64,000 nucleotides of DNA, taken from the NCBI GenBank assembly GCA_050084515.1, contig CM114271.1:31620001-31684000 (forward strand). Reading direction: 5' to 3'. Origin of the DNA: Blasia pusilla. Its lineage: Eukaryota. The notes beneath the pieces were generated by a model. It was not told the DNA's origin. It ran no database searches and saw nothing but the letters and a program-made list of their open reading frames with translations. The translations under genes and the position numbers were made by a program. Numbering within the stretch: the stretch's first letter is position 1; each line of letters opens with the position of its first letter. Shown here in pieces: positions 27,565 through 61,687 of the stretch.

Positions 27565-28377
27565 TCACAACGCCATTTTGCTCAAAACTTTGCAAGAGTG
27601 CTACAAACGCAAGTTGGGAAAGTTTGACATGATGAAAAATGAAAAAAACGTCATTTCCATTGAAGGTTTGGTGGTTCGGGGCCAAAAGTACAATTTCCAT
27701 CGAAGGTTTGATGGTTCGGGTCCAAAAAAGAGTTAGAATTTTTTAGGGTTTTGCTCACAACTTCATTTTGCCTAAAACTTGGTAAGAGTGCTAAGGCCAC
27801 CTTGGGGACCATGTTGGCCAAATTTCAACTCAATATAACAAAGTTGGACAAGATGAAAAATGGAAAAAGCTTATTTTGGTAGAAGGTCTGATAGTTCGAT
27901 TCCAAAAAGGAGTTAGAAATTTTTGAGCTTTTTCTCACAACTTCATTTTTCCTCAAACTTGGCAAGAGTGCTAGATGCACCTTGGGTACAAATGTGGCCA
28001 AATTTCAGCTCAAGATGAAAAATTTGGACAAGATGAAAAATAAAAAATTCTTTTTTTAATAGAAGGTTTGATGGTTTGGGTCCCAATAGGACTTGCCAAA
28101 TTTTTAGCTTGTGGTGTGAACTCCATTTTTCTTGAAAAATGGCAAGACTTCTAGATGCATCTTGGAGACCATGTGGGCCAAATTTCACCTCAAGATGAGA
28201 GAGGTGGACAAGGTGAAAAATCATAAGACCTTCTTTTCATTCAAGGTTTAATGGTTCGGGTCCAAAAAGAGTTAGTTACTTTTGAGATTTTGCTTACATC
28301 TCCATTTTGAATTAAAATTGGCAAGACTACTAGATGCACCTTGGGGACCAATGTGGCCAAATTGCAACTGAAGATGA
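27565..28377. repeat. 180-bp tandem repeat array, segment 1
   Basis: Repeating unit AAACTTGGCAAGAGTGCTAGATGCACCTTGG...GGCCAAATTTCAGCTCAAGATG...TTGGACAAGATGAAAAATG...AGAAGGTCTGATGGTTCGGGTCCAAAAAGGAGTTAG with a 180-bp period. Confidence 0.9.
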
Positions 28378-28802: not shown

Positions 28803-28828
28803 CCCCCCCTCAATATCCACTCTCATGT

Positions 28829-29612
28829 TGTCGTGCGCCTACTCTCCTTGAACGTTAATCTTGTTGTTGCTGAAGCGTGCGTTCAGTAGGTCACGCTCTC
28901 AACGTTGATTTGCATCCAAACACGCACTCTGGTTATTCGGGTCTTGGATCAATCAGAGGGCTAAATTTCCGAGTTCTCGTCTCGGACTCTCATCAAGCTC
29001 AACCTTCCTAGTTTCGCGGTTTACAACACGGGCAAGTCTCGCAAGACTTGGGACAAACTTTTTGGTCGGTTCAGGAACCTCAAACGGCGTTTCTCGCTTG
29101 GCGGTTCCAACTGTCCGATGGACATCCAATGAGTCCCTAACCAAGACTCGCACGAAGTGAATCTCGGGTTAGAATCCAAGTGTGGCGTACAAAGTCCACT
29201 CCCTTGGATCAGGTTTGGGTTTCGAGTTCCAACGCCAAACTCCCGTTCCATCCCGTGCCTCAGAGACGCCGTTTGACGCTCAAATGGGGGATTCGTGTTC
29301 CAAGACATCTTGGAGAGACTCCTCCCTTACTAGTACTTCTGGGGATGTCCGGGGTCCCCCTACCTTTAGGGAAAGACACCCGGGCCTCTCCAATTGGCCC
29401 TCAACCCCATTGCTCTAACAATTGTTTTCGGCCAATATCTCAGTCTATACTTATGCGTTTGCTAAGATCTTTAGTGCGTTGGAAGCGTCTCAAGATAAGC
29501 TTTCCATTGCATCCTTATTTGTTCCAAACTCATCTTGAGACTAAAATTTATGATCCAAAACACAGTAAAATTCCCCAAACGCTAGTCGTGTTCCAAAACT
29601 GGTTCTCACCTC
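28829..29612 (-). mobile_element. Truncated copy of the ~1-kb LTR (family 2)
   Basis: High similarity to 52171-52940 and to the reverse complement of 42355-43130. Has the TGTCGTGCGC terminus. Confidence 0.85.
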
Positions 29613-33300: not shown

Positions 33301-34092
33301 AGACGCGGCCAAGGGGTGAAAACCGGACTTGAGACGCGGGCAGCGTTTGGGAGTTTCCGACTATACTTTTGACCATAACTTTGAGTCCCAAGAAGCGTTT
33401 GGGACAAGTAAGATAGCGTTGGAAAGCTTATGTCAAGCCACTTCTAATGCACCAAAGATCTTTGCAAATTCTTGGGCAGAGGTTGAGATATGGGCCAAAA
33501 CCGCCTGTAAGAGGAGTCGAGTTGAGGGCCAAAAAGAGGGGCCCGAGTGGTCTTTCCCAAAGGTAGGGGGACCCCGGAGTTTCCTAGGAGTACTAGTTAG
33601 GGGGAAGGTCTCCAAGAGTGCTTGGACCTCAAACCCCACTTTGGGCGCTGCGGGGCGACCCAAGGCACGGAACGGATTGTGAGTTTGGTGTTGGGCTTCA
33701 AAACCCAATCCAAGTTTGATAGAGGGATTTCTGAGATCCCTATTGGATTCCAACTTGCAACTCATATCGTTGAGTCTTGGTTAGGGGCTCATGCGAGGTC
33801 CGTTGGACAATTGGGACCGCAAGGCATGCAAATGCCATTTCACGTGCCTTGACTAACCATAAAGTCTGTCCCAAGTCTTAGAAGGCTTGCCCGTGTTGGG
33901 AACCTAGGAATGAGGGAAGGTTGAGCTTGATGAGATGCTGAGTTGAGGACTCGGTGGGTTGGAAGGCCGCTTGACCCAAACCCATACTAACGTGAGTGCA
34001 TTTGGGTGCAGGTTGGCGATGAGAGTGTGTCCTACTGAACATACGCTTCCGCAACACTAAGATTGACGTTCAAGGAGAGTAGGCGCACGACA
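33290..34092 (+). mobile_element. 5'-truncated, diverged family-2 LTR
   Basis: Colinear with 42330-43130. Ends GTTCAAGGAGAGTAGGCGCACGACA directly against the 180-bp array. Confidence 0.8.
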
Positions 34093-36397
34093 TGATGGTT
34101 CGCGTCCAAAAAAGAGTTAGAAATTTTTAGGGTTTTGCTCACAACTTCACTTTGCCTAAAGCTTTTTCAGAGTTTTAGGGCCACCTTGGTGACCATGTTG
34201 GCCAAATTTAAGTTCAAGATGAGAAAGTAGGACAAGATGAAAAATGGAAATACCTTATTTTTGTAGAAGGTCTGATGGTTCAGGTCCAAAAAAGAGTTAG
34301 AATTTTTTAGGGTTTTGCTCACAACTTGATTTTGCCTAAAACTTTGTAAGAGTGCTAGCGCAATCTTGAGGACTATGTTGGACAAATTTCAGCTTAAGAT
34401 GAAAAATCGAAAACCTTATTTGGGTAGAAGGTCTCATGGTTCGGGTCCAAAAAGGAGTTAGACATTTTTGAGCTTTTGCTCACAACTTCATTTTTCTTGA
34501 AACTTGGAAAGAGTCCTAGATGCACCTTTGGGACCATGTTGGCCAAATTTCAGCTCAAGATGACAAATTTGAACAAGATGAAAAATGAAAAAACCTTATT
34601 TTGGTAGGTCTCATGGTTCGCGTCCAAAAAAAGAGTTAGAATTTTTTCTCACAACTTCACTTTGCCTAAAACTTGGTAAGAGTTCTAAGGCCACCTTGGC
34701 AACCATGTTGGCCAAATTTCAGCTCAAGATGACAAAGTTGGACAAGATGAAAAATGGAAAAACTTTATTTTGATAGAAGGTCTAATGGTTCGGGTCCAAA
34801 AAATGGTTAGAAATTTTTAGGGTTTTGCTCACAACTTCATTTTGTCTAAAACTTGGTGAGAGTGCTAGCGCCACCTTGGGGACCATGTTGGGGAAATTGC
34901 AGCTGAAGACAACAAATTTGGACAAGATGAAAAATGGAAAACCTTATTTTGGTAGAAGGTCTTATGGTTCGGGTCCAAAAAGGAGTTAGACATTTTTGAG
35001 CCTTTGCTCATAACTTCATTTTTCTTGAAACTTGGAAAGAGTCCTAGATGCATCTTTGGGACCTTTTTGGCTAAATTTCAACTCAAGATGAAAAATTTGG
35101 ACAAGATGAAAAATGAAAAAACCTTATTTTGGTAGAAGGTCTCATGGTATGCGTCCAAAAAAAGAGTTAGAATTTTTTTTCACAACTTCACTTTGCCTAA
35201 AACTTGGTAAGAGTGCTAAGGCCACCTTGGCAACCATGTTGGCCAAATTTCAGCTCAAGATGACAAAGTTGGACAAGATGAAAAATGGAAAAACCTTATT
35301 TTGGTAGAAGGTCTCATGGTTCGCGTCCAAAAAGGAGTTAGAAATTTTTAGGGTTTTTCTCACAACCTCATTTTGTCTAAAATTTGGTAAGAGTGCTAGC
35401 GCCACCTTAGGGACCATGTTGGAGAAATTTCAGCTCAAGATGACAAAGTTGGATAAGATAAAAAATGGAAAAACCTTATTTTGGTAGAAGGTCTCATGGT
35501 TCGGGTCCAAAAAGGAGTTAGAAATTTTTGAGCTTTTGCTCATAACTTCATTTTGCCTAAAACTTGGCAAGAGTCCTAGATGCACCTTTGGGAACATGTT
35601 GGCCAAATTGCAGCTCAAGATGAAAAAGTTGGACAAGATGAAAAATGACAAAACCTTATTTTTGTAGAAGGTCTCATGGTTCGGATCCAAAAAGGAGTTA
35701 GTAATTTTTGAGTTTTTTCTCACAACTTTATTTTGCATAAAACTTGGCGAGAGTGTCAGGGTCATGTTGGGGAGCATTTTGGAAAAATTTCAGCTCAAGA
35801 TGACAAAGTTGGACAAGATGAAAAATGAAAAAACCTTATTTTGGTAGAAGGTCTGATGGTTCTTGTCCAAAAAGGAGTAAGTAATTTTTGAGTTTTTGCT
35901 GACAACTTCATTTTTCTTGACACTTGGCAAGAGTGCTAGATTCACCTTGGGGACCATGTTGGCCAAATTTTAGCTCAAGATGACAAAGTTGGACAAGATG
36001 AAAAATGAAAAAACCTAATTTTTTTAGAAGGTATGATGGTTTGGGTCTAAAAAGGAGTAAGTAATTTTTGAGCATTTTCTCACAACTCCATTTTTCTGAA
36101 ACTTTGCAAGAGTGCTAAATCCACCTAGGGGACCATGTTGGCGAAATTGCAGCTCAAGATGACAAAGTTGGAGAAGCTGAAAAATGAAAAAACCTTATTT
36201 TGATAGAAGGTCTAATGGTTCAGGTCCAAAAAGGAGTAAGTAATTTTTGAGAATTTTCTCACAACTCCATTTTTCTTGAAACTTGGCAAGAGTGCTAGAT
36301 GCAGCTTAGCGACCATGTTGGCAAAATTGGAGCTCAAGATGATAAAGTTGGACAAGATGAAAAATGAAAAAACCTTATTTTCATAGAAGGTCTGATA
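34093..36397. repeat. 180-bp tandem repeat array, segment 2 (~13 units)
   Basis: The same phase recurs at 35221, 35401, 35581, 35761 and 35941. Variant monomers recur at ~530-bp spacing. Confidence 0.95.
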
Positions 36398-36576
36398 TGT
36401 CACGACTGTTAGGATAGATCGGCGGTATCTAGCAGAGCGTTTGCACAAGTGTATGGATGCCATGAGTTAGCATGGGATCGTGTGTGCTTGTGTGTGTGTT
36501 AGCGGTGTATGTTTTGTAGCGATGTATGTTTTGATAGCGGTGTATGTTTTGTAGCGATGTGTATGCGCACGACAAC

Positions 36577-37087
36577 TCTCACGATTGTTAGGATAGATCG
36601 GTGGGATCTAGCAAAGCGTCTGCACGAGTAGTGGAGGACAAGCCCATGAGATCAAGGCTGACCTGTTGAGGCCCCGATAAATCTGAGAGAGCAGGTTTTC
36701 CCTTCGTTTTGGCTCATTTGGAGCCATATAGAGAAACTTACTATTTCGGGTAAATTTCCATATTGGGGATAGTTGATTTTCCACTTTGGGAAGGGGCCCT
36801 TGACCCGCTACAACAGGTCAAGAGGCAACGAGGTGACCTGCGAGCATAGGTTACCGTTGAGAGGGCTTGGGAGAGGGAAGGGGGTATACCTCCAAGCGAG
36901 AGAGCTTGAGAGCTCATTCTTTCTTTTCTGAACCTCTTGGCATAAGGCGGCGGAGCTGTGGTCCCTTGCCTTGTGAGTGTAACCCAAGCCTCTCATTAGG
37001 AGAGTGGGTTTGGTTTGACATGAGAGAGTGCAAACTTTTGAGAGCTATGGTGTGAGATAGTGTAGAGAGAGATTGGATCTTACTTTA
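36577..37087 (+). repeat. Terminal repeat segment A1 (511 bp)
   Basis: Direct repeat of 47398-47909, highly similar along its whole length. Confidence 0.9.
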
Positions 37088-38749
37088 CAAAGAGAGAATG
37101 AGAGAAAGAGAGAAAGAGAGAAAGAGAGAGTGAGAGAGCTTCATGGGGGAGCTCACCGGTCACTCGCTGTTTTTGCAGGTTGGGGACCGTGTTCCCCGTT
37201 CAGCGGCTCATGGGAGTGCTCACCGGAGCAAGGGCTGCTTTGATTGTTCTTTGCATTTGTTGATTTTTCGTGTGGAAGAGTGGTGCGCGGAAGCGCTGCC
37301 CAATTTCTGATAGGGATTGATTATGGGGGTGGGTTGCCCCATGTCGGCGCTCTTGGGATCACCATGTAGCTTGCTGATTTGTATTTTTATAGGTTTTACA
37401 TTTTTGTTGGGAGAAATCAGCGCGCAAGTGCTGCCAAATTTTGTGTAGGAGAAAGAGACATTGGGCTTTACGACAGTCCCCGTCAGTTTCTACTGGAATG
37501 TCCGATTCTAAATATTTTTTGACATTGTTGTAGATCATGAAGCTTTGCACGCTGTGCAACAAACAATGCATAATTTGGAGTTGCAAGCAAAAATTTATGG
37601 TCAATCTTGCAAAACTGCCATTGCTAGGCGATTTTTAGGGTTAAATTGTTCAAACCCTAAACCAGCCGTGAAGCCGGCGGCGACTGTCGCCGTCATAGTC
37701 ACCATCAACGGTCCGCCGTCAAAGGTCAACTGTCACCATCAATAGTCAACCATCATCGTCACTGGTTGGCCATCACCATCAACGGTCAACCGTCACTGTC
37801 AATGATCCACTGTCCGTTGTCCACCCTTTGGTTGCCATTTCCGCCATTACAGAGTGGAGGGTCTTCCATGACGTTCGTTGATTCTTTGACTTGCGTCGCC
37901 ACCACGTACTTTGTTTTGGCCGCCACCGTCATCGCAGTGTCGTCATTAACCAGTGATGGTAGATGACCTCTGGTTATGGTGTCTGAGTTTTGATTTCATG
38001 CTGCTATGTTGTGATTGGTAGCCGCTCGACGACGATCGAGTACCGTGCCGTGACGCCTGTAGTCGCAACGCGCCACCGATTGCTGCGCCATACCGTGATG
38101 CCCGTAGCCGCAACACGCCATCGATTGCTGCGCCGTGCCGCTCGTGGCCGTACCGCACCGTCTCGATCGTGGAACATCTCCTTCACTAAAGAGCAGAGCG
38201 TGTGAGTTGCTGATTGAGGAGGGTATATCGTCAAGTGCCACACCCCATTCCCGAGTGCCGTGCTGTCTGTAGCAGTTCTGTGCCGCACCGGACCACTCGA
38301 CCTGCATCGCACATCGCGGAGGTTGAGCAGCGTCAGTACGAGAGGAGTACGACTAGCTGATTGGAGGAGTTGTCTTCACGACCGAGGTGGGGTCGAGATT
38401 TGCAGTAGTTGCTGAGGAGCGACATCGACATGTGTTCAAGTAACCCATTCTGGTCCTTTACCCTGCATGTGTGAGGGATTCTGGGATTTGGGTAGTTTAT
38501 TTGGGGATATTGGGTTGTGTGGATGCTGAGAACATCATTCATGTATGTGGTTTAGGGGACATAGACATGTGTGGGATGTCCGGAGTTGAGGGTAGGTTGT
38601 CGATGAGATGATAGCCTAGTCAATTTTCCGCACCACGCCGCGTGTTGCCGTACGCTACACGTCTTGGGGAGGGACAGTGTAGATCGAGTGGCGCATGTTT
38701 GGGATGAGTGATTGAGGGATTACTCATGAGGCTTAGAGTGATTGCGTGA

Positions 38750-41460
38750 GAGGGGCACGAGGGTCATCATGGCATCCATTCGGGACTTTGAGAGGCGAGG
38801 TGGTGAACCCGAGAGTAGCTTTAGAGGTTTTATGCGGAGTAGCATGAGGTTCCAAGGGTCTCCACGTGAGGGACCACCTCGACCTCCTTTTGTGTTATCG
38901 TCAGACGAGGGGGAGGGTGTAGAGGAGTTTGTGAGCATATCGCCACACATTGTGAGTGGTCCTACGAGTTGGGCGTACGAGATGGACGACCGGGGTAGAG
39001 GACCACGTAGGTTTCAGGTGCAGCAGGCACGATTGAGTTGCATGATTTCATAGCAGAGTTTAGAAGTTGGTGCGACTCCCAACGGGCCAGGAACTCTAGA
39101 GAGTTCAACCCATTTACAGCGTGGAATGGTATGTTCCAACATTTAGAGGTGGCGCCATGGACGATTACCATGAGTTCTCTCAGAGATATGCACGTGAGAT
39201 CAAAGCGTGGAGGCTCTACTATGACCTACATTATCTGTCATAGACGGAGCCGTTCCCAGAGGAGGAGGAGGAGGAGTCAGGAGAGGCTACTTCCTCTTCC
39301 ACTACTGACATTTTAGGAGGGGTCACTCGCATTGGAGCAGTTGCATCGTCTAGTCGGGTTCGTCCGATGTTCAACCCTGTGGTTGAGTTCTTTGCTGAGT
39401 TGAGGGCGAGCTACCAAGGGGTACGAACGGAGAAGTTGAGGAGCATCCACGACTTCTAGAGGCGTCCAGGTGAGAGTTTGCGTGAGGCTTACACTCGCTT
39501 GCGCCGGTTGATCAATGTCACTCAGGGGGTGACAGAGGCTCAGGCTATCCAATCATGGTACGCGATGCTGGACCAGACCCTGCGGACACGGGTGCGGGAG
39601 GGATGCTTCTTATGAACACCTCCCCTACGTTGAGAGATTTTTTTAGGACCACCGAGAAAATTGAGCTCAACATGGCGGAGGAGAGCGTAGCCACCATGGG
39701 TTCTAAGCGAGAGCAGTCACGATTGGTTGCACCACTTGTGCAGCAACGCGGACTCCGAGATAGGTCGACTGTGGCACCACGAGCTCAAGGAGTATAGCGA
39801 GAGGCAGTGCCACAGAGACCTGCGCCTTCATATGCGGCTCACCAGCAGCCGCCTACGATTACTTGTTGGTCATGCGGTGGAGCCCATCATCAGCGCGATT
39901 GCACTCGTTAGGGTCATCGATGTGTGCCTCAGCATGGAGGAGGAGGAGGAGATAGTGCTGCACCAGGAGGTTATCAGTGTGACTATGGTCAAAGGTATGG
40001 TCATACATGCACCAGATGTTTCAGCTTACATCCTGACTTACGTCCGGACCGAGGGCCAGAGAGGGCATCAGAGCGAGTAGCCGGTCCGGGTGGGCCTAGA
40101 GATTGTGCACCAGGTGGTCCCATTGGGGGACGAGGAACTGGAGTTTCCTGACAGGGTGGTGGATCTGCCCATGGAGGAGGTAGAGAACCACCACCTAGAT
40201 GCGCCGAGGGAGACGTCGGACGTGAGGCTATGATGGCTGCTCAGATACAGTAGCTATAGGAGCAGATTGCCGCTATGGCATTGAAGTTACCCGATGCCGA
40301 ATCCGTGGCATCAACATCATATGGAGCAGCCAGAGATATGGAGGATCCTGGTTGGATGTGTAGGGTTGCCCAAATGGAGGCCGCCGTAGTTGTGACGCGT
40401 TGAGCAGCTGTAGAGTTGGATCCACAGCGAGGGGAAGCCAGAAAACAGACTAGGCTTCCCCAATCTTTCACATTGTTCAAAGCGATGAGGACCCCATCGA
40501 TGGGTCCTCATCAAAGTTCTTGGAGAGTTGGTGATGTTGTTGGTGTGCAGGCACGGAGGGCGATGGGAGAAGCGAGTGCGATGACTCTTATTGTTGATGC
40601 TTAGGAGGGGCATGTGTCGAGCACGTTGTTGGGGGCGGCCACCGTTGTGTACCGCACTCCTTTATTTTCTACTTTCGATGTTATGACGTTGGGGGGTACG
40701 CCCGCCGAGGCTTTTTGGCTGGCCACTTTACTATGTGAGCACGGAGTTGGAGTTCCTACATCACGTTCAGAGGTGATTGCAGAGGAGGTGATGGACCTGC
40801 CCTTGGAACAGATGCTTAGGCCGTCCACGTCAGATTCATGGCAGGCTCTGGCTGCTAGGATGGCAGGATGCCCGCTAGACCCACGATAGAGCGTGCCATG
40901 GCTTCTCCTGGTGTTGTGTTTTTGGATAACCGAGGAGAGGTCTTCCAACTCGTGAGTCCCGGAGGTAGAGCTTTTAGTCCGCAGCGTGTCTTGTTGGATT
41001 CAAGAGCGCAACCCCTGATGTTGGGGAAAGCGTCATTTAGAGGATTGGGTTTGACGAGAGCGGATGTGGAGCGTTGTCTATTCCGGATACAGACGTCCTT
41101 GGGTGGAGCGAGTACCACATAGTATATCATCCGACAGAAGGTCTTGGTGAGGATTCACCCGGGACATCCTACAGATGAGTCCGTGGTGCGAGTCAAGGAA
41201 ATAGTGATTGATGCAGAGTCCTACGACGTCTTGGTTGGTGGAGCAGTGTTATACCCGATGGGATTTTCCCTGGATTACTGGGAGAAGTCAGCGTCCTATA
41301 GACCAGGATGGCACTCAAGTGATGGGCGCCTTAGCTTATTACCGGTTCGATTCAAAAGTGCAGTGATCGAGCGACGGCCAGGAGAGGTGGCGACTTTAGC
41401 AACATTTAGCAGTGCCATCACTTGGCCTAGTGATTTGATTGAGGGACATGTCCATGCATA
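38750..41460 (+). pseudogene. gag and aspartic protease region of the gypsy element
   Basis: Gag-like core (EKLRSIHDF*RRPGESLREAYTRLRRL, ~39430-39510); zinc knuckle CWSCGGAHHQRDC (~39864-39903); protease VLLDSRAQ (D-S-G-A type, ~40988-41010) and YDVLVG. Many stops. Confidence 0.8.
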
Positions 41461-41710
41461 GGATACTCCCGTTCCTAAAATTTCTATGGAGAGGATTGTT
41501 ATGGTAGCCGCATCATTCCGTGGAGGAGAGGTGCCATTGTGGGGTTTTATTGAGGAGCTTCGACGATTGGCTGATGAGCACGTGCACACAGTGTGGAGCG
41601 AGGCGTTTGCACCAGTGTGTGACGGGTCTGAGGAACCCGAGGTAGCAGGGAGTGCAACGATGACACCCTTGGATACCACACCGATTGTGTGGTGTATCCC
41701 GGAGGAGGAT

Positions 41711-43680
41711 ATTCGAGTGTTAGATCTCTTTGGAGGGATTAGCACTGGGTTAGCTGTTGTTTTGCAAGCAGGAGTGCGAGTGCAGCAGTACCTCTATGTG
41801 GAGAGTGATGATGTTGCGAGGCGCGTCTCACTATGACATGTGGTGCAGTAATGCCTATGTTTTCTTGACTTATTGTTTGTGTCCATGGTACACGGGTACC
41901 AGAGTTCCCTACCAAGGGATATTTCATTACTGGGGGCGCAGGACTTAGAGCGGGTAGGGACCATTGATTTGGTCATTGCCGGTTGGCCATGTCAGGGCCA
42001 ATCGAGTGCTAGACGAGGCAGCGGGTTGGTTGACACTCGGTGTAGGTTGTTTTGGGAGATGTTGAGGGTCTGACGGCAGTTGCAAGAGCACCAATCACGT
42101 TCTCCAACTTTCGCGACCCTCATAACCAAACAACACCAAATATGCGCCAAGCGAAACATCAGAACTCAAAGGAACTCACTCCGCGAGGTTTGCGCTTTGG
42201 AGAGGCGTTTGGAAGAGTCTCTTGGAAAAGTCTAAGAGACGAAACGCGGAACAGAGTTGTGTGTTTCATGCGTTAGTGGTCGCGACCAGGAAACCTAGAC
42301 CAAACGCGAGCCGAGACTTGAGATGAGTTGAGTCTTGGGAGGTTGGTTGCCAAAGAGGTGAGAACCAGTTTGGAACACGACTAGCGTTTGGGAGAATCTG
42401 ACTGTGTTCAGGACCATAACGTTGAGCTCCGAGATGAGTTTGGGACAACTAAGGACGCGTTGGAAAGCTGATCTTGAGACGCTTTCAACGCACCAAAGAT
42501 CTCAGCAAACGCATAAGTACAAGCTGAGATATTGGCCAAAAACGATTTAGAGAGCAATCGGGTTGAGGGCCAATTGGAGAGGCCCGGGTGTCTTTCCCTA
42601 AATGTAGGGGGCCCCTGGAGATCCCCAGAAGTACTAGTAAGGGGAGTACCTTCTCTGAGATGTCTCGGGAAACGAAACCCCACTTTGGGCGCCAAACGAC
42701 GTTTCAGAGGCACGGGATGGAACGGGAGTTTGGCGCGGAAACCCAAAACCAAACCTGATCCAAGGAGTGGACTTTTCACCACACTTGGATTCCAACCGAA
42801 TTCGCCGTGCGAGTCTTGGTGAGGAACTCATTGGATGTTCATCGGACGATTGGAACCGCTTAGCGCGAAACGCCGTTGAGTTCTGAACCGACGAAAAGTC
42901 TGTCCCAAGTCTTTCGAGACTTGCCCGTGTTGGAAACCGCGAAACTAGGAAGGTTGAGCTTGAAGAGAGAGTTCGAGACAAGAACTCAGAAAGTAATCCC
43001 GCTGATTGATCCAAGACCCGACTAACCAAAGTGCGTGTTTGGATGCAGATCAGCGTTGAGGGCGTGACCTACTGAACGCACGCTTCCGCAACAAACAAGA
43101 TTAACGTTCAAGGAGAGTTGGCGCACGACACCAGCCTACATTCTAGAGAATGTGCCGATCTTAGGAGACTACAAGTCACGAGTGGTGATGAGTGCTCATC
43201 AGGTGCATGCCTGGATTGGCCCAACAATGTTCTTGGATGCGGCAAGTGTAGGTTCTAGAGCCCATCGCCCGCGTCTATGGTGGACCAACTTGGTGCCCCA
43301 TGCAGTGTTACGGAGGGCATATGCGAGAGTGGAGCGCGCCTCCTATTTGTTAGTGGATTCCATTCTAGATCCAAGTCGTCGATCACAGGCAGTGAGGCAC
43401 GATGATCGACCACCGTTGACTATGGTCAACAGGGTAGGCAGGCCACGGGTAGCCTTGCCCATGTTTGTGAGTTTTCTCGCTTCCTATGCATACAAGGAGG
43501 CCGGTCCTGGCTTGGTTTGGGATGACGAGATTCAGCGGTTGGTGGAGCCCAACGCGAACGAGAGAGAGCGAGCGATGGGATTTCCCACAAGAGTGACGGG
43601 CGTACCGTCAGTGTCAGAGGCATCACGACGCCAGTCTTGGGTCAGGCAATGGACTTGAACTGCTTCACATGGATCCTCAA
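41711..43680 (+). pseudogene. DNMT3-like C5 cytosine DNA methyltransferase domain within pol, split by a solo LTR
   Basis: Motif I IRVLDLFGGISTG; motif II YLYVE; motif IV DLVIAGWPCQG (PC at 41987-41992); motif VI ILENV (ENV at 43146-43154); motif VIII DAASVGSRAHRPRLWWTNL; motif IX ERERAMGFP; motif X RRQ..LGQAMDL across a frameshift. Confidence 0.92.
42109..43130 (+). mobile_element. Solo LTR (family 2, 1022 bp) inserted in the MTase domain
   Basis: T(T)TCGCGACC ... GCGCACGACA termini; 5-bp TSD CCAAC / CCAGC. Removing it rejoins ...QSRSPAYILENV in frame. Confidence 0.92.
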
Positions 43681-44049
43681 CTTGGGAGCGGTTGAGCAAC
43701 GACGTATGAGATCGCGACAGATCATAGCGGTATTGTTGGTGAGCCCCATGCCTACCGAGACGGTGGAGGCAGTGGCTGGGGGCAAGACCCAAGGAGATCC
43801 ACACACAAGGGGAGATCGAGAGAGACACCCTTGGACTTCTTGGGATGTTTTGCAAGTACGCTAGGAGATGATAGCCCCAACATCAAGGGTGGTTCTGGGC
43901 ACTGCACGTGAAGGAGATCAGAGTTTGCAGTCGGCTGCAGGAGAGCGGCCGAGTGTTGTTGTTCGAGACGGGATTGCACCATAGCAACCACCGATACCCA
44001 CGTCGGAGAGTCCTACCGTAGTCAGGATGGAGACTTGGGAGCCAAATAT

Positions 44050-46930
44050 GGGCCCTAAGTTGAAAAGAGGAGAGCAACGCAAGATACATCAGTTCCTCAG
44101 GAATTATAGGAGCTGCTTTGTGTTTAGCATGGAGGATTTGGGTACGTTGAAGGGACCGGGGATCCGCATTGAGTTGTCGAGTGATACGCCAATCTTTCGA
44201 TGACCCTACAGGTACAGTAATATGGAGAGGTCTCTGATTCACAGCAGGAGCCAAGACTTGGACGGAGCAGGACTAGTGGAGATGTTGCATGGGGAGTATG
44301 CATCTCCCACTGTCATGCCCGCCAAGAAGGATGTGCATGGCAACTAGACAGATAAGCGGATGTGTGGGGATTACCGACTTATCAATTGGCAGACAAAGTC
44401 CGATAGGTATGCCATGCCCACCTCTGAGGAGATCTTTGATGCGATTGGTCACATAAAGGTCTTCAGTTCATTGGATTTGCGAGCCGGATACCATCAACTG
44501 CCTAAACGATTGGAGGACAGGCAGAAGACGACATTTTTGGGCATCGATCCTCACGGGAAGGATTGTTTGTACTAGTGGCGGTTCTTACCATTTGGGTTAA
44601 AGAACGCCCCGGCTGAGTTTCAGAGGGTCATGGATAGGATCTTGGCTGGTCTGAATTTTGCTAGGTGTTATATTGATGACATTGTAGTCTTTAGCGCCAC
44701 GGTTGAGGAGCATGAGCGACATCTAGAGGAGGTATTTTGACGATTGCAATTACATGGGCTGAAGCTACATCCAGGCAAGTGCAAGTTCTTCTATGACCAG
44801 ATTGAGTACATGGGTTATACGATATACCCATGGGGCCTTGGTGTTTAGCACACGAAGGTAGAGGCTATCTCACGCATTCCACGCCCTACAGATGTGAGTT
44901 GTGTTTACGCATTCATGGGATTGGCGAACTTCTATCGTCAAGGGATTCAGTTCGATTGCAAAGCCGCTAACGTTGCTGACCAAGGTGGATCACGAGTGGC
45001 ACTAGGGAGATGAGCAGGAGCAAGCATTTCAGTTGCTCAAGGACAGGTTGACTTCCGCGCCCATCTTGAGGAGACCGATCACGGGGCGTCCTTTCCAGTT
45101 GCACATAGATTGGAGCATGTTGGGACTTGGAGCGGTGCTCACCCAACATGATGATGAGGGTAGAGAGTTCATGGTGGCTTACGCTAGCCGCTCAAACAAC
45201 GCTGCACAGGAAAAGTGCAGCTCGTATGAGGGTGAGTGCTTGGGTGCAGTATGGGCTGTCGCGCATTTCAGGTGTTACTTATTCGGCAACGCCTTTACCA
45301 TCATCACTCATCATCAACCACTAAAGTGGTTGATGGAGTCCGACAAGCTTATAGGGAAGCTTGCGAGATGGGCTCGGTTGTTGCAGGAGTATGATTTTCA
45401 GGTGGTACATAGACTTGGGACGCTCAACGAGGATGCAGATGGGTTGAGTCGTAACCCATGCCCAAGTCAGCAAGATGCAAGTAGAGCTCGATGGCATGGA
45501 GAGAGTGATAAGGAGTCAATGCCAAGATGGCACACGTTAGCCTATTTAGGCATGTTGGCTATGGAGAGCCAGAGTGTGGAGACTTCGATGGCGAGGTCTA
45601 GTGGAGAGTCCTTGGATCCTGAGGCCAGTGAGGAGACGACAGGTGGTTGAGATATTCATGATGATGGAGTAGTCTTGGAGTACCTTCATACTCGCAGCGT
45701 TGCGAGCACCGTGGGTGCTAGAGAGCCGAATCGGATCCTATAGCAGGCCAGACCGTTCCGTTGGGAGGGGATACCTATTTTGAGGGTTTGGGAAGATGGT
45801 AGAGTACGCGTAGTGCCGCATCCTTTGCAGAGAGCACAACTAGTGCAGCATGCCCATGAGGAGTTGGATCATTTTGGGGTGAAGCAGACGTACAACTTGC
45901 TCCAGATTCAGTATTGGTGGCGAGGCATGCAGACTGACGTTCAGAAGTTTGTTGCCAGGTGCATGGTGTGTAATCGGGTCCGAGCATCGTTCAATGCTCC
46001 GACTCTACAGTTGCATCCATTACCAATCATGGGCTTAGGGTATAGATGGAGTTTGGATTTTGCAGGACCTTTGCCTTTGACGGAGTGTCACAGTCGTTAT
46101 GTGTTAGTGATGGTTGAGCACTTCTCGAAGTGGATCGAGTTGGTTGCATTGCCTGACGAAGCGAGTGAAGGAGTAGCTTATGCCTTCCTTGAGAGAGTGC
46201 TGAGTCATTATGGCGCACCGGCTGAGGTGTTGACAGGGAAGGATACAGAGTTTCACGGTGAGTTCCAAGCCTTGTGTGATAAGGCGCTGATCGACCAGTG
46301 CACGACTTCGCAAGATCATCCCGAGGTGGATGGATTAGCGGAGAGAGTTGTGCAAACGGTGAAGAGGGGTTTACGCAAGTATGGCTTGCAGAGAGGTCAC
46401 CTAGGAGATTGGGACCTCCAGTTGTCGTGGTTGGCCATGGGATACAGATTCAGCACGCATGCATCCTTAGCGTCTTTTTCACCGTACTTGCTACCTTATG
46501 GCCGAGATCCAGATTTACCTACGGCCATTTGTTGAGATGCTGGTGAGGTGGTGGACATTGATGACCCACATGTATGGATGCGAGCATGTTCTCAGAGGGC
46601 TGAGTTGTTTCAGAGAGTGATGCTCATGGCGTTGGAGAACCTGGCGATTGCATAGCATCGAGATACGTTGAGGTATGCAACTATTCGGGGTGGTGGTTAT
46701 CAACCAACATTCTGGAGGTTTCATGAAGGAGATTATGTCTACTTGCAGCAGACGACACCGACAACGTTGGATGTGACTGCAAGGCACACTATCCTGAGAG
46801 TGCGTGACGTTTTGCCATCCGATGTTCACTTGCTGAAGGGACGCGATGGTATGGTATGGAAGGACCATGTGCGTAATTGTGCGCCATATCACCTTCATAA
46901 TATTGATGGTAGAATAGTCCGAGCTCAGCT
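44050..46930 (+). pseudogene. Gypsy reverse transcriptase, RNase H and DDE integrase
   Basis: RMCGDYR, DLRAGYHQ, PFGLKNAP, YIDD; RNase H (IDWS..GLGAVL, YASR, DADGLSR); integrase HHCC (HEELDH...CMVC) and core WSLDF, VEHFSKW, DGLAER. RT-RH-INT order indicates Ty3/gypsy. Confidence 0.95.
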
Positions 46931-46951
46931 GTAGTTCTTACAAGCTTGCGT

Positions 46952-47092
46952 TGTATGTTGTGTGGTTCTACTCATGGTGCAGCCACGATGCTAGTCTGTG
47001 ATGGATGTTTGAGAGGTTGGCATATGGCATGTCTGATGCCACCTCTCACTAGGGTTCCTTGCGGACGATGGATGTGTCCCAGATGTACATAG
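46952..47092 (+). other. PHD finger (C4HC3) at the end of pol
   Basis: CMLCGSTHGAATMLVCDGCLRGWHMACLMPPLTRVPCGRWMCPRCT* has all eight zinc ligands and the conserved Trp. Not listed in the ORF track. Confidence 0.92.
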
Positions 47093-47280
47093 AGGAAATA
47101 CTAAGTAGGTTTCAATTCCGAATTTTTTTTGTGACATGGATGACAAGAAGGCGACTAACGATGGGGCCACATGAGCACTCGAACTTTTTGCTCTTATCAT
47201 CATAGAGATGTATGTTGTGGTAGGTAGGGATAGATGGCTATCTGGAGTTAGAGGGACCTAACCACCGGCTAGGGGGGCGA

Positions 47281-48026
47281 TTGGAGATATTTTGGTACTT
47301 TTCGCCTCTATATATTGATGCCATGAGTTAGCATGTGATCGTGTGTGTTCGATGACAGCGATGAATGTTGTGTAGCGATGTGTATGCGCACGACAAATGT
47401 CACGATTGTTAGGATAGATTGGTGGGATCTAGCAAAGCGTCTGCACGAGTCATGGAGGACAAGCCCATGAGGTCGAGGATGAGCTGTTGAGGCCGTGGGA
47501 AATCTGAGAGAGCAAGTTTCCCTTTCGTTCGGCTCATTTGGAGCCATATATAGAAACTTACTATTTTGGGTAAATTTCCATATTGGGGATAGTTGACTTT
47601 CCACTTTGGGAAGGGGCCCTTGACCCGCTACAGTAGGTCAAGAGCCAAGGAGGTGATCTGTGAGCATAGGTTACCGTTGAGAGGGCTTGGGAGAGCGTAG
47701 GGGGTATACCTCGAAGCCAGAGAGTTTAAGAGCTCATTCTTTCTTTGTTAAACCTCTTGGCATAAGGCGGCGGAGCTATGGTCCCGTGCCTTGTCAATGT
47801 AACTCAAGCCTCTCATTAGGAGAGTGGGTTTGGTTTGACATGAGAGAGAGTGCATACCTTTCCGAGCTATGGTGTGAGATGGTGTAGAGAGAGATTGGAT
47901 CTTACTTTATTGGAGATATTTTGGTACTTCTCGCCTTTTTGTATGGATGACATGAGTTAGCATGTGATCGTGTGTGTGTTCGATGATACCGATGTATATT
48001 GTGTAGCGATGTGTATGCGCACAAAA
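47281..48026 (+). repeat. Right terminal repeat block B1 (47281-47395), AA, A2 (47398-47909), B2 (47910-48026)
   Basis: B1 and B2 are direct copies (TTGGAGATATTTTGGTACTT ... GATGTGTATGCGCAC) and A2 copies A1. The purine tract AGGGGGGCGA precedes B1. Confidence 0.9.
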
Positions 48027-48620
48027 GATGGTTTGGGTCCAAAAAGGAGTTAGTAATTTTTGAGCATTTTCTCACAACTCTATTTTTTGTGATACTTGGC
48101 AAGAGTGCTAGATGCATCTTGAAGACCTTGTCGACCAAATATCAACTCAAGATGAAAACGTTGGACAAGATGAAAAATAAAAAAGCCTTATTTGGATAGA
48201 AGGTTTGATGGTTGGGGTCCAAAAAGGAGTTGGAACTTTTTGAGCTTCTGTTCACAACTTCATTTTTCCTGGGGATCATGGTGGCCAAATTGAAGCTCAA
48301 GATGACAAAATTGGACAAGATGAAAAATGAAAAAACATTGTTTTGATAGAAGGTCTGATGGTTCGGGTCCAAAAAGGACTTGCCAAATTTTGAGCTTGTG
48401 GTCCCAACTCCATTTTGCTTTAAACTTGGCAAGAGTGCTAGATGCACCTTGGAGATAACGTGGGCTAAATTTAGCTCAAGATGGAAACGTTGGACAAGAT
48501 GTCCGGTTAAAGACTTTTTTTTTTTCCATTCAAGGTTATCTGCTTCGCATCCAAAAGGTCATTTTAAACTTAATTTGGGATGAGACTTTGCCAGAGTGAT
48601 AGATGTTACTTGGGGACCAT
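48027..48620. repeat. 180-bp tandem repeat array, segment 3
   Basis: Same monomer, resuming at GATGGTTTGGGTCCAAAAAGG and decaying toward 48620. Confidence 0.9.
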
Positions 48621-51815: not shown

Positions 51816-54380
51816 TCATACTACCACTGCTATTGGCCTTAATCCCGAATCTACATCGTCTATACCTAATACTTTTGCATTTGCTCTGATATATGCAATA
51901 AGAAACTCTAAGCTTTTGCGAACATAGGGATTCGGAGCTAATTCCCACTTTTGAATCCTTTCCAAATAAGTAACTCTCACGTTCGCTTGGGCATTCTTGA
52001 CAGAGAGGTTGTATGTCACATAGTTCAAATTCTTCACAATCATTCATAGGGCATAGATTTCAGTGGCCTTGCTAAAAGGGAGATTCTGAGGCCCTACTTT
52101 CAACTCCAGTGCTATATGACCTACATGGTTTTTTTGTTCCTACTGCCACCATGTATGAGGAGACACTAAGTGTCGTGCGCCTACTCTCCTTGAACGTTAA
52201 TCTTGTTGTTGCGGAAGTGTGCGTTCAGTAGGTCACACTCTCAACGTTGATCTACATCCAAACACACACTCTGGTTAGTCGGGTCTTGGATCAATCAGCA
52301 GGCTAACTTTCCGAGTTTTCGTCTCGGTCTCTCATCAAGCTCAACCTTCCTTGTTTCGCGGTTTACAATACGGGCAAGTCACTCGACTTTCTGGTCGGTT
52401 CAGGAACGTCAAACGGCGTTTCGCGCATGGCGGTTCCAACTATCCGATGGACATCCAATGATTCTTTAACAGATACTTGCACAAAGTGAATCTCAGGTTG
52501 GAATCCAAGTGTGGCTTACAAAGTTCACTCCCTTGGATCAGGTTGGATTTTGAGTTCCAACGCCAAACTCCCGTTCCATCCCGTGCCTCTGAGATGCCGT
52601 TTGGTGCTCAAAGTGGAGATTCATGGTCCAAGACATCTTGGAGAGACTCCTACCTTGCTAATACTTGTGGGGATCTCCAGGGTTCCCTACATTTAGGGAA
52701 AGACACCCGGGCCTCTCCAATTGGCCCTCAACCGACTGCTCTCATAGTCGTTTTCAGCCAATATCTCGGTCTTTACTTATGTGTTTGCTAAGATCTTTGG
52801 TGCGTTGGAAGCATCTCAAGATCAGCTTTCCAACGCGCTCTTATTTTTTCCAAATTCATATTGGGGCTAAACATTATGGTCCAAAACACAATCAAATTCC
52901 CCAAACGCTAGTCGTGTTCCAAAACTGGTTCTCACCTCTTTGGCAACCAACCTTCCAGGACTCAACTCATCTCAAGTCTTGGCTCACCTTTATTCTAGGT
53001 TTCCTAGTCGTGACCACTTATACATGAAACGCACAACTCTATTCCACGTTTCGTCTCTTGGACTTTTCCAAGAGACCTTTCCAAATGCCTCTCCAAAGCG
53101 CGAATATCGTAGCGTGAGTCCACTTGAGTTCTGATTTTTTGCTAGGCCCCTATTTGGTATTGTTTGGTTATGAGGGTCGCGACACTCACCCCTCCTTAGA
53201 AATTTGATGTCCTCATCAACGCAAACCTTTTTAATGTTAAGTTTTGGGAAGCTGACCCCTTAACACTAAATCGCGTTCTGGTAGCTAACCTGCAATTCCT
53301 CTTTTGGCTTAAGTGTTAGGTTGTCGCTATGTGTGTTCCAAAACTGGTTCTCATCTCTTTGGCAACCAACCTTCCAAGACTCAACTTATCTCAATTCTTG
53401 GCTCACATTTGGTCTAGGTTTCCTAGTCGCAACCACTAACGCATCAAACACACAACTCTGTTCCACGTTTCGTCTCTTGGACATTTCCAAGAGACCTTTC
53501 CAAATGCCTCTCCAAATTGCGAACATCACACTGTGAGTCCACTTGTGTACCGATGTTCCACTTGGCGCCTATTTGGTGTTGTTTGCTTATGAGGGTTGCA
53601 ACACTAAGACTTCATCAGTCCACATGGCATTCCCCCAATCTCCAACGCCGATGTATGGGCTAGAGTTGGATCGAAAATGGATGAATATGTTTCTAGCATG
53701 GAGGTCGGTATGAAAAACTCCACGCTTGTGGACACTCTCCATGGTTCCAAGAAAGGCAACCACAAGGTTGGTGACCTTTGATGCTATTGCAAGATATCTC
53801 ATCTTTTCCAACTCTCCTAGATTACCCCCGCCGTTCTTCAAGTTATGACATGCTCGCAACCAATATTCAAGGTGTCCACCATTCCAATATGGAAAAATGG
53901 CACGTGATGGATCCTTGATCAACCTTCCCACCATGCGAACAACACCACAATGTAAAATACTAGCAAACAACTCCTCTTGCATCATCAATTTTCTAGATCC
54001 TGATAGAGATGATTCCTTATACACCTTCATGCAATAATACATTTCTTCCCTAAAGCCACGGGTTCCGTTATTTTATAACGATACACGATTGTGTGTAAAT
54101 CGGTTCCCACAATATCGCTCGGGTCATGTCCTATTACTACATTCTTATGGCAAATCAAAGTTATTACACATGGAACGGTCAATGTCAACCCTAGAGAAGT
54201 ACTACGTCCCTTGAAAAGACTTTGAGCACTTCTTAACTCTATACAAAATCTTTCTAGGAGAGCCGACTCTGCAACATTCTGCTTCTCATCCTTATATGTC
54301 TTGAGATGGACATATGCTCTCTCCAGGTTAACATCTTATTGGGCAGAAAATTTAGTCAACCTATCAGCCTTCGCGGCATC
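51816..54380 (-). pseudogene. Protein kinase pseudogene, split by an LTR-element insertion
   Basis: CMKVY (subdomain II), HTDLHARN (VIb), GDWG (VII). Beyond the insertion: HIALE (APE-like), FSKATEIYAL*MIV (IX) and PNPYVR (XI). Confidence 0.8.
52171..53603 (-). mobile_element. Internally deleted family-2 LTR retroelement
   Basis: Complete LTR at 52171-53184; polypurine tract GGAGGGGTGAG on the minus strand (53185-53195); ~150 bp internal remnant; partial second LTR at ~53331-53603; perfect 5-bp TSD CTAAG (52166-52170 and 53604-53608). Confidence 0.92.
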
Positions 54381-57299: not shown

Positions 57300-57871
57300 T
57301 AAGAGTAAAGTTAGGATAGATTGACGAGTTTATAGTGGAGCACCTTTGAGGATATTGGAGGATAGCCTCAAGAGGTTGAGGATGACCTGCTCAAATCTTT
57401 GATAACCTGAAAGAGTAGGTTTCTTTTTTGTTTCGGCTCATGGAGTTATATAGAGAAATTAATTATTTTTGGCAAGGTACCATTTTGAGTAGAATTGAGT
57501 TATTTCCATTGGAAAATAGTAGTGAAGAGCCATGGAAGTGACCTGCAAGCATAGGTTACCAAGGATAGAGCTTTGGAGAGGCAAGGGGGTATGTCCAAGG
57601 AGAGAGAATTTTGGAGCTGATTCTTTCTTTGTTGAACCTCTTGGCATGAGGCGGCAAAGCTATGGTCCTCCTTGCCTTGTGAGTAATCCAAGCCTCTGAT
57701 TAAGAGAGTCGGTTTGGTTTGACTTGAGAGACACCTTGATTTATTGGAGATATTTTGATACTTGATCGTCTCAATGTTTAGATGCCACGAGTTAGTATGG
57801 TATCTTCTGTATTTTTGTTTGTATTCAATGACAGTGATGTATGTTGTATAACGATGTGTATGCGCACGACA
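57300..57871 (+). mobile_element. Solo A+B terminal repeat of the gypsy family
   Basis: Colinear with 47398-48026, including the TTATTGGAGATATTTTG junction. Ends GTATGCGCACGACA. Confidence 0.8.
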
Positions 57872-59896: not shown

Positions 59897-60144
59897 TTCT
59901 CCATTTCATTTCCTTTTCCCGTATATCGCATGGAATAATTTAAATCAATTAAATCAATAATCATGGGATAATTCAGTGATTTATGATTTAATTGACCCCA
60001 AGAATTTTAATTGATTTTTAAATCAATTCTCCATTTAATTTCCTTTTCCTATGTATCGCATGGAATAATTTAAATCAATTAAATCATTAATCATGGGATA
60101 ATTCAGTGATTTATGATTTAATTGACCCCAAGAATTTTAATTGA
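59897..60144. repeat. 130-bp tandem duplication with internal inverted repeats
   Basis: Near-identical copies start at ~59897 and ~60027. Each contains TCAATTAAATCA ... TGATTTAATTGA. Confidence 0.85.
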
Positions 60145-61687
60145 GTTTTGAAACAATTTGAATCAAATATAAAATCTGAAGCTAGTGATCAAAAGGGGTG
60201 CTATTCATTATAATATAAATTTTGTATATATTATAAATTATAAGCTAAAAGCATTAGATCGCTATCCTCATTCTAAACGAGTGTACGTGTGTTGTGAGAT
60301 CAGATCGGGACGGTCCCTTCTGCATGGTGGCCTCAGCCTGTGTTATAACTTCCAATGACTTACCAAACGTTGGTGGGATGCGTGACCAGTACACATAGAT
60401 TTGATTACCTCGTACTAGTGTAACACACTGAAAACATGATTATAGGTCCGGTGCTCTGCAAGGACCAATAATCATGCTGTAAGAAGAAGAAGAAAATTCT
60501 GTCTCCACTACGAAAACCTTCGCTTGTGTGTTTTTTGAGAGGTTTGCATATAAAAACTACAAAACACTCTCACTAGAATGGATTTATTTATACATGAGTG
60601 TTCCATATGCCATCCTAGCGATGATTCAGAAGTGATGATGGGGGAGAGGGTGTGGAGTTTGATCGAGACTCTACTACGTTCTAAGGAAGTGCCAAAGACA
60701 ATGCAAGAATGCTGCAGGTCCTCCGCGAATCAGAAGTAACCTTTAACCTTGTAGTTAATGGGCTCATGATTTGATGAAGACCCGGAGAAAAGCTTAGAAA
60801 GGCTGCAATTGACAAGGCACGTGCACGTGGAGTGGTCCAGCAATTTTGGTGCCGTGACATATATACTGTGATGCCGTGACATATATGATCGGATGAGTAC
60901 GAGAGTAATGGTGTTTCAAGTGCCGACTTTCACGAGTGTGCATCGAATACGGAAGAGTCTACGTTATTCCAAGGTGAAGCCTCCGTCCAGAAACATGCTC
61001 CATGAGGGCGATTTATTTCGTATAATGTTAAGCACGCGTCTGTCCCCAGACAGCGTAGATCGGTGGACAACTGCATGTTCTGCTGACTCTATGTGGCATC
61101 CATGGTGGTGCTGGGGCTTACGTATACACTTTCATACCCAGCCGCAAGCTTGATTAGTAAAGTTTTCGGTCATCATGATATATAAATCACTAGCCGAAGA
61201 TCCGGAACTGCCCACCGGTTTACAGAACGGATGGATCACTTCGATCATAGAATCAAATTGCAGTATGTCACTCGTCCCAGAAGTATAAAAGCCCGTGAAT
61301 TTATGCACCTTCCACTCGATCTCACTATTGCACACCATAGAGCATTTCTATCGCGCGTGTATGTATGTTGACCACACAGTTTTATTCATGACGTATAGTT
61401 TAGCAAGAAATCGAGTACCGATCTCTATTACATGTTGATCGTCGGAGTCTAGCTGCGCGTACGCATAAACTGATAGTCGGTGTACGTGAGCGCTAGCACC
61501 CAGTAGTTTGAATGTGAGAAGTCCGACGGAAAATTTATTGTCAAGTTTTCCTAGAGTGAGTACTTATATTAGCTGAACATTCGTTACTCCAGGAGGACTA
61601 TTACGGACTTCTCCTGCTATCTAGCTCAGACTCAGAAACAGCAACTTACGGCGAGCTACACACTCGGCAAAGGTGTCATTAATCATA

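Follow-up and report, generated by a model that had tools for sequence, protein, structure and literature searches.

Split direct repeats have already been noted in a retrotransposon lineage of the Gypsy type. According to de Mendoza et al. 2018 (PMC5890265, Fig. 4c legend), the repeats of KnitGypsy-Dnmt3 from Klebsormidium nitens are DIRS-like and follow the order A-coding-B-A-B, and the split repeats of the streptophyte Gypsy-DNMT3 lineage are thereby on record. The text of that article available to us states no mechanism, primer sites, ends or target duplications for KnitGypsy-Dnmt3, and the literature that our searches reached describes no mechanism for split repeats in an integrase-bearing element. 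In the sections of further papers on which we drew, self-priming is predicted for moss elements of the Tcn1 clade (Neumann et al. 2019, PMC6317226), and integrase cleavage of the palindromic junction between two long terminal repeats (LTRs) is described for foamy virus and for HIV-1 in vitro (PMC1180852, PMC1905944). Here, we analysed a stretch of 64,000 nt (contig CM114271.1 of assembly GCA_050084515.1, positions 31,620,001 to 31,684,000 of the forward strand), hereafter the window. Positions 36398-48026 of the window are one insertion of a ~11.6-kb Ty3/gypsy-type retrotransposon copy, old and inactivated. Judging by its domains, it is a member of the streptophyte Gypsy group whose pol includes a cytosine methyltransferase and whose integrase is followed by a PHD finger. 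The repeat finder and blastn self-comparison gave its repeat order as A'B'-A1-internal-B1-A2-B2.

The host sequence of the element is a 180-bp satellite, and this allowed the ends of the insertion to be placed. One satellite array occupies 34396-36393 (11.2 copies) and restarts at 48027, the element having inserted into one satellite monomer. The empty site was found among the read contigs: satellite contigs link 36393 straight to 48027 with 3 letters shared, 8 of them in DNA run X2 and 2 in run X3. The flanks read GATA|TGTC... on the left and ...AAAA|GATG on the right. On the basis of the empty-site joints and the flank sequence, we define the insertion as 36398-48026 with a 4-bp duplication of the satellite GATG. 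The left copy of the duplication (36394-36397) is mutated to GATA, the satellite consensus being GATG, and the right copy (48027-48030) reads GATG. The same boundaries had been given by an earlier reading of this DNA made from its letters alone, which we call the sequence-only reading.

Within these boundaries, the internal region begins directly after A1 (36577-37087), which starts TCTCACG, a mutated TGTCACG, and no B stands directly after A1 in the window sequence. The internal region is followed by B1 (47280-47395, ending GCGCACGACA), a 2-nt spacer AA (47396-47397), A2 (47398-47909, starting TGTCACG) and B2 (47909-48026), the terminal GACA of which is mutated to AAAA at 48023-48026; the last A of A2, at 47909, can equally be assigned as the first base of B2. 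B1 (47280-47391) and B2 (47909-48022) are 89.5% identical over 114 nt (E 4e-36). On the left, A' (36398-36449) carries the integrase-type start TGTCACG and is followed by B' (36450-36574), which ends GACA before a spacer AC (36575-36576). Global alignment showed that A'B' is A positions 1-51 fused to B from position 32 to its end, with ~45 nt of extra tandem material, so that A is ~460 nt and B 31 nt short at the A'|B' joint; this loss is either original or the result of a later deletion. A' (36397-36457) is 85% identical to the initial 60 nt of A2, and B' is 83-90% identical to B2. In the self-comparison, the B' tail, spacer and A1 (36532-37087) form a single colinear alignment with the B1 tail, spacer and A2 (47353-47909; 90.7% over 558 nt, E 0), and therefore the two B|A joints, GACA-AC-TCTC at 36571-36580 and GACA-AA-TGTC at 47392-47401, are homologous. 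The sequence-only reading had pointed out both head-to-tail joints, which are plainly there in the sequence, and the succession of A1, internal region, B1, AA, A2 and B2, which self-blastn and the repeat finder reproduced.

The order A1-internal-B1-A2-B2 is not peculiar to this locus. Metagenome contigs were scanned with an alignment of 18 proteins spanning reverse transcriptase (RT), integrase and PHD finger, yielding 79 loci; these were studied by self-blastn of 50 long loci, a census with A and B queries and a closer look at three window-like loci, and near-identical locus pairs were merged before distinct loci were counted. B-A-B follows the PHD finger directly in 22 distinct loci, in 10 of which (L003, L009, L023, L034, L037, L042, L051, L052, L065 and L066) A1 is present as well. 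Another ~11 loci have the form A-internal-B, with unrelated DNA at once after B (L016, L044 and L063 at full length, 8 from the 3' end only), and one locus (L032) shows B-A without the final B. The form AB-internal-AB, which the sequence-only reading had set against its own proposal, was found in 0 loci. No B precedes A1 in any of the 18 distinct loci with a visible A1 upstream flank, and the A'B' unit is thus restricted to the window copy. The split order recurs across at least four sequence-divergent families. Since A1/A2 and B1/B2 identities are similar inside each locus (83-92%), both duplications date from insertion.

Target duplications were compared in 10 full-length copies, namely the window copy and 9 related loci. 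The 4-bp sequences that flank the A1 start and the B2 end are exact duplications in four (L003 AAGG, L051 ATAA, L052 AACC, L066 TTTG), match at 3 of 4 positions in five (L023, L034, L042, L065 and the window) and at 2 of 4 in L037, the chance expectation for a match of at least 3 of 4 being ~5%. These duplications indicate that the whole of A1...B2 was inserted as one piece by a staggered cut. A1-internal-B1-A2-B2 with a 4-bp target duplication is shown by these loci to be the normal integrated form of the lineage. Among the A-internal-B copies, L044 has the duplication TTTT, L063 has AGAT/AGAC and L016 has none, so 2 of the 3 full-length copies match.

The signals for reverse transcription define a different unit. 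A polypurine tract, TAGGGGGGCG (47270-47279), lies directly before B1, and a G-run was found directly 5' of B1 in every locus inspected there (for example TCTGGGGGGGG, with TAGGGGGGCG itself in the window and L003/L009). The remark of the sequence-only reading that the purine tract abuts B1 thus holds for the window and for every related locus examined. Inspection by eye of the 330 nt downstream of A1 revealed no tRNA-type (TGG...) primer-binding site in any of 9 loci; this absence had also been remarked on earlier, and would be explained by a predicted self-priming site there. In the window, this putative primer-binding site, AAAGAGAGAATGA (37089-37101), would form 12 Watson-Crick pairs and 1 G-U pair with 36914-36926 inside A1, a score matched by 0 of 206 control windows. 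In the same way, the ~13 nt at the end of A1 can pair with the internal A site at 13/13 positions in L034, L066 and L003, through three unrelated sequences, with 12 pairs and 1 G-U in L011 and L052 and 12 pairs in L023. Eight of 12 loci beat all 206 control windows, and L009, L042, L051 and L065 were reached by 2-4 of them. The complementarity covaries across the four families. In all four, the start of a TATA motif lies 29-31 nt upstream of the internal A site (TGTATAAAAGG in moss-type loci, GATATAAT in L066, GGTATGAAG in L003, GGTATAC at 36883-36889 in the window), and the internal A site is therefore the likely transcript start. We predict that the element's RNA pairs through its first bases with the primer-binding site, as in self-priming of the Tf1/sushi type. 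A1 would accordingly hold the remainder of U3, the TATA-like GGTATAC, the predicted transcript start and self-primer site at 36914-36926, and then R-U5. Taken together, the signals would bound a reverse-transcription repeat B+A, in which U3 is B plus the first part of A, and R-U5 is the rest of A. A primer-binding site at the A start was also considered and rejected, as it predicts B-A-internal-B, a form that was not observed.

The TG...CA ends, in contrast, enclose A+B and not the B+A unit that the primer sites define. B ends in ...(C/T)GACA and A starts with TGTCA, and these short inverted repeats make the B|A site near-palindromic. The B1|A2 spacer is exactly 2 nt in 16/16 moss-type loci, with TGTCA.../...TGACA termini. 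The sequence-only reading had suggested that the repeat of reverse transcription could be B+A and the integrated ends TGTC...GACA, and the polypurine tract, the self-priming site and the 4-bp duplications at A start and B end all agree with it. The A2|B2 joint, compared with the A end plus B start, is equal in 9/17 distinct moss-type loci and differs by -3 to +1 nt in 8/17: by -1 in two, -2 in two, -3 in one, and +1 in three, where T, C or G has been added. Variation in length is confined to the A2|B2 joint, the templated B1|A2 spacer being invariant, and the A2|B2 joint behaves as if made anew in each cycle.

The explanation that we regard as probable, with reservations, is that reverse transcription makes B+A repeats, that the termini of the complementary DNA (cDNA) are then joined, and that the B|A palindrome in the 5' repeat is the place where integrase opens the DNA. 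The signals themselves can be read in the DNA; the process, including the opening of the 5' B|A site by integrase, is what we infer from them. With these sites, reverse transcription would give B-A-internal-B-A, whose termini, the B start and the A end, would be without TG/CA. The integrated A-internal-B-A-B would be this cDNA order with the left B shifted to the right end, which implies that the A end was joined to the B start and that the DNA was opened within the 5' repeat, at its B|A site. Opening at B|A would leave CA-3' ends, which integrase could insert with a 4-bp stagger. If the joining came before integration, the substrate would be a two-repeat circle cut by integrase; if it came after, integrase would cut the 5' B|A and insert both new ends, and the host would join the old termini. 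Cutting of B|A in each repeat, or of a one-repeat circle, would yield the A-internal-B copies. More broadly, it may be that throughout the lineage the ends that integrase uses have become separate from those that reverse transcription makes, with an obligatory end-joined cDNA, circular or equivalent, opened by a DDE integrase at a palindrome in the 5' repeat; we put this forward tentatively.

Several observations weigh against this route. If a circle with two identical B|A sites were cut at either of them, A-B-A-internal-B should be as frequent as the observed form, but it was found in 0 of 18 relatives; we therefore reject a two-repeat circle cut at random at either site, and the opening must be directional. 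Accordingly, the earlier idea of a circular intermediate opened inside the repeat stands in so far as the integrated DNA looks so, whereas random cutting falls and the circle itself is inferred. Some asymmetry would be needed; the 5' repeat might, for example, be completed earlier or lie close to a DNA end. Integrase could act on the 5' repeat of linear cDNA while the 3' repeat is still incomplete, the old termini being joined later by the host, or the plus strand could run on from the A end onto the B start. No circular or linear cDNA form was observed. The A-internal-B copies could be obtained equally by recombination between B1 and B2, and, in the AT-rich context of A2|B2, later slippage may add to the length variation. 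For self-priming, the value for each locus is the best of 21 offsets set against single control windows, which favours the observed value somewhat, and L009, L042, L051 and L065 are only in the top 1-2%. Moreover, RNA read starts are listed only at 37413 and 38424 and not at the predicted 36914. Finally, all split-repeat relatives examined are degenerate, with long open frames (at least 700 aa) only in distant loci without detected split repeats, so that activity of the family would have to be judged from its abundance and RNA reads.

The directional outcome would follow without a circle or host end-joining if RT itself made the A-end|B-start joint. In this case the plus strand would jump end-to-end and copy B as far as B|A, and integrase would trim the outer B end and the 5' B|A of a linear B-A-internal-B-A-B. 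Only plus-strand run-on would add the right B, which would explain why B precedes A1 in none of the 18 relatives; the single non-templated nucleotides and small losses at A2|B2 fit template jumping, and a matching minus-strand jump could account for the A'B' of the window. Nevertheless, displacement synthesis would have to stop or be cut at B|A, and the A'|B' joint, with its missing pieces of A and B, is not a clean end-to-end jump. For these reasons we consider the jump unlikely. Direction would also come without any choice of site if the element replicated in the way proposed for tyrosine-recombinase elements, whose split direct repeats in the DIRS order have the identical arrangement. The transcript would then run from A1 into B2, the outer parts would be copied from B1|A2 as a 'bridge' to give DNA of greater than unit length, and integrase would replace the recombinase in the last step. 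A templated bridge, however, implies an invariant A2|B2 joint, and 8 of 17 vary; the polypurine tract before B and the primer-binding site after A are canonical LTR-type signals that predict B+A; and RNA depth over B2 and its flank was the lowest of all bins (11.9 versus 136 in the bin holding B1), a comparison blurred by multi-mapping. We hold replication over such a bridge to be quite unlikely.

The sequence-only reading had kept nested or tandem insertion as an alternative, and recombination between ordinary AB-repeat copies would likewise make the locus a one-off accident. The region is indeed rich in repeats with nested insertions, and the extra A'B' is unique to the window copy. Against this, the order is common to 22 distinct loci in at least four divergent families and is in print for Klebsormidium, the whole structure lies within one target duplication, and no internal region has repeats of its own, and so we reject such an accident as barely credible. 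The A'B' unit on its own is a separate matter. Because it lies inside the same GATA/GATG duplication as the rest of the element, A'B' arrived with the insertion, and the precursor must therefore have contained three B|A sites, which a circle of three repeats, or else run-on at both ends, would provide. It is very unlikely that A'B' is instead a mis-assembly, a separate A+B fragment collapsed onto the left end. Such an artefact would suit a family of extreme abundance (259,106 contigs matched in run X1), no listed read contig spans 36450-36650 with the A'B'|A1 joint, and none of the 18 relatives has such a unit. On the other side, the B' tail, spacer and A1 are colinear with the B1 tail, spacer and A2, A' begins just where the satellite is interrupted and shows TGTC and the 4-bp duplication as expected, and A'B' carries mutations of its own, including a private deletion and duplication. 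Read mapping gave no rows over the B|A or A|B joints. The read joints recorded as 'goes back' and 'skips ~10,820' were discarded as A1/A2 and B copies aligning with one another.

The coding region agrees with the assignment to Ty3/gypsy. Pfam scans covered all 93 plus-strand frames of at least 35 aa and 32 minus-strand frames. On the plus strand, they gave the order DNA_methylase (4e-7), RVT_1 (1e-12), RT_RNaseH (1e-31), Integrase_H2C2 (7e-17), rve (8e-10) and PHD (3e-10); the minus-strand frames gave nothing relevant, and no Phage_integrase match, which a tyrosine recombinase would give, appeared on either strand. A degenerate polyprotein extends over 40617-47089 (+), along which tblastn with six related proteins, polyproteins of liverworts and algae, was colinear from the N-terminal part with protease through methyltransferase, RT, RNase H and integrase to the PHD finger, with a few frame changes. 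Its C5 cytosine methyltransferase (PF00145) occupies ~41162-42112 and 43134-43637, RT 44036-44950, RNase H and the HHCC and DDE integrase the stretch up to 46916, and the PHD finger 46946-47089, all on the plus strand and found by both Pfam and tblastn. The methyltransferase part is 48-58% identical to that of a Marchantia polyprotein and is interrupted by a nested insertion. A protein search with the RNase H frame returned 210 proteins, many of them carrying DNMT and PHD domains; those with a named source belong to liverworts (Calypogeia, Riccia, Marchantia), Klebsormidium and Closterium. The Klebsormidium retrotransposon proteins are 53-59% identical to the RNase H region of the window and carry no family name linking them to KnitGypsy-Dnmt3.

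The window copy is inactive, since the second catalytic D of its integrase is replaced by G (LTGKD in the window versus LTDQG in relatives). It also later acquired frameshifts, stops and the nested insertion. The latter, 1,027 bp in the methyltransferase domain (42104-43130, +), is a TGTC...GCGCACGACA unit of a related family whose flanks CCAAC/CCAGC hint at a 5-bp duplication. The joint 42103->43131 is present in 18 RNA reads at 14 starts and in 1 DNA contig each of X2 and X3; because these skip the nested piece exactly, other copies without it must exist. The unit has the ends TGTCGCGACC...GGCGCACGACA, shares its end motif with B of the main element, and may be an A+B unit or solo repeat of a sister family. 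Copies related to it lie at 28826-29612 (-), 52170-53182 (-), 53325-53596 (-) and 33342-34092 (+).

Upstream of the polyprotein, the 5' internal region (37088-40616, +; 3.5 kb) starts with a ~50-nt GA-rich tract. It matched neither protein families in Pfam nor the relatives by tblastn, and gag was not located; a 45-bp tandem pair lies at 38043-38132. No second coding copy was found in the window by tblastn of the element's frames. The RNA evidence comes from one RNA run, in which the whole internal region has sense-biased coverage (depth 16-179 in one mate orientation versus 1-23 in the other). RNA reads diverge from the window sequence at 45158-45306 and 46911 (77-128 reads per site), and thus expressed members differ from the window copy over these stretches. 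In run X3, two contigs continue the polypurine tract at 47280 with GTTGTGGTACAC..., the B start of L003/L009-type relatives, so a sister subfamily with a different B is present in the same organism. Words of the element also occur in small shares in several 'air metagenome' runs, which would fit airborne spores or host fragments and gives no evidence of habitat.

Solo A+B copies arising by A1-A2 recombination had been proposed at two further places in the window. A contiguous, diverged A+B unit of a related family is indeed present at 57310-57871 (+; ends GCGCACGACA, 66-80% identity by self-blastn). The other, at 20244-20735 (+), which starts TATCATATC and is 77% identical to A2, is likewise diverged and contains only A and the first ~50 nt of B. 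Recombination between A1 and A2 is a plausible origin for both, as is direct insertion of an A-B fragment, and the target duplications of the two units are not readable. Upstream of the 20244 unit there is no homology to the 3' internal end of the element (score 30 versus a shuffled mean of 35), and therefore this unit cannot show the order internal-A-B.

Several further features lie in the window and among the relatives. Arrays of the ~180-bp satellite are found at 27702-28377, 34396-36393 and 48027-48620, with a 150-bp variant at 48146-48416, and the window is rich in repeats throughout, which suggests a (peri)centromeric or heterochromatic setting. Short tandem repeats of ~2 copies each, at 18144-18541 (205-bp units) and 59897-60158 (130-bp units), are unrelated to the element. 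In L023, an inverted B-A-B fragment of another copy (2867-3344) lies ~200 bp upstream of A1, and in L041 an inverted A-B unit immediately follows B of the main element; these inverted fragments suggest clustering or nesting of the family. Two distant relatives have identical contig ends (L057, 1-123 = 9049-9171; L077, 1-187 = 8236-8422), and the polyprotein frame of L057 appears to cross the contig ends. Either LTR elements whose assembly only looks circular or true circles could account for this.

In textbook LTR retrotransposition the substrates of integrase are the repeat boundaries; in this split-repeat lineage the two do not coincide, and this has been conserved between charophyte algae, liverworts and moss-like genomes. 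As far as the literature searched extends, the spread to liverwort-like and moss-like genomes is new, as are the self-priming site with its predicted transcript start, the palindromic site for integrase inside the repeat, the 4-bp duplication, the variable A|B joint and the co-existing A-internal-B form. These signals, from self-priming and TATA/start to palindrome, 4-bp duplication and variable joint, make the replication route directly testable. In practice, standard LTR finders seek two identical terminal repeats and would mis-annotate or miss such elements, although the family is extremely abundant in the sequencing runs of this organism. If the proposed route is true, linear-LTR and tyrosine-recombinase insertion would be joined by a third strategy of integration. 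The route would then provide a mechanistic bridge among LTR elements, DIRS-like elements and pararetroviruses, and could explain why split direct repeats arose twice. Testing it could also help to clarify the unexplained origin of split repeats in tyrosine-recombinase elements.

With canonical Ty3/gypsy elements, the window element shares the domain order protease-RT-RNase H-integrase, the HHCC and DDE core, the polypurine tract, TG...CA and the 4-bp duplication; it departs from them in the two identical terminal LTRs, its left end being A and its right end B-A-B. Its repeat order A1-internal-B1-A2-B2 is that of the split direct repeats in the DIRS order (Ngaro, PAT-like). Elements of the DIRS order have a tyrosine recombinase and are not known to make target-site duplications, whereas the window element has a DDE integrase, TG...CA ends, 4-bp duplications and the Gypsy-type order RT-RNase H-integrase. 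The window element is not a member of the DIRS order. Like Tf1/sushi/Tcn1, it lacks a tRNA-type site, and the sequence after its 5' repeat is complementary to its own predicted transcript start; compared by features rather than by phylogeny, those elements have ordinary LTRs and a chromodomain, whereas here the repeats are split and a PHD finger is in the chromodomain position. The sequence-only reading had taken A...BAB repeats as characteristic of tyrosine-recombinase elements and not of Ty3/gypsy, which the Fig. 4c legend describing KnitGypsy-Dnmt3 contradicts (PMC5890265). As far as that article describes it, KnitGypsy-Dnmt3 has, like the window element, a Gypsy-type pol containing a Dnmt3-like methyltransferase; its host is a charophyte alga, the host of the window element is probably a liverwort, and the extra A'B' occurs in the window copy only. 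The two-LTR circles of foamy virus and HIV-1, in the parts of those studies at hand, offer integrase the same ...CA-NN-TG... palindrome, cut internally to give integration-competent ends. In retroviruses, however, the palindrome arises only upon end ligation and serves a side path at most, whereas here it belongs permanently to the repeat and is transcribed with it, and the route through it would be obligatory.

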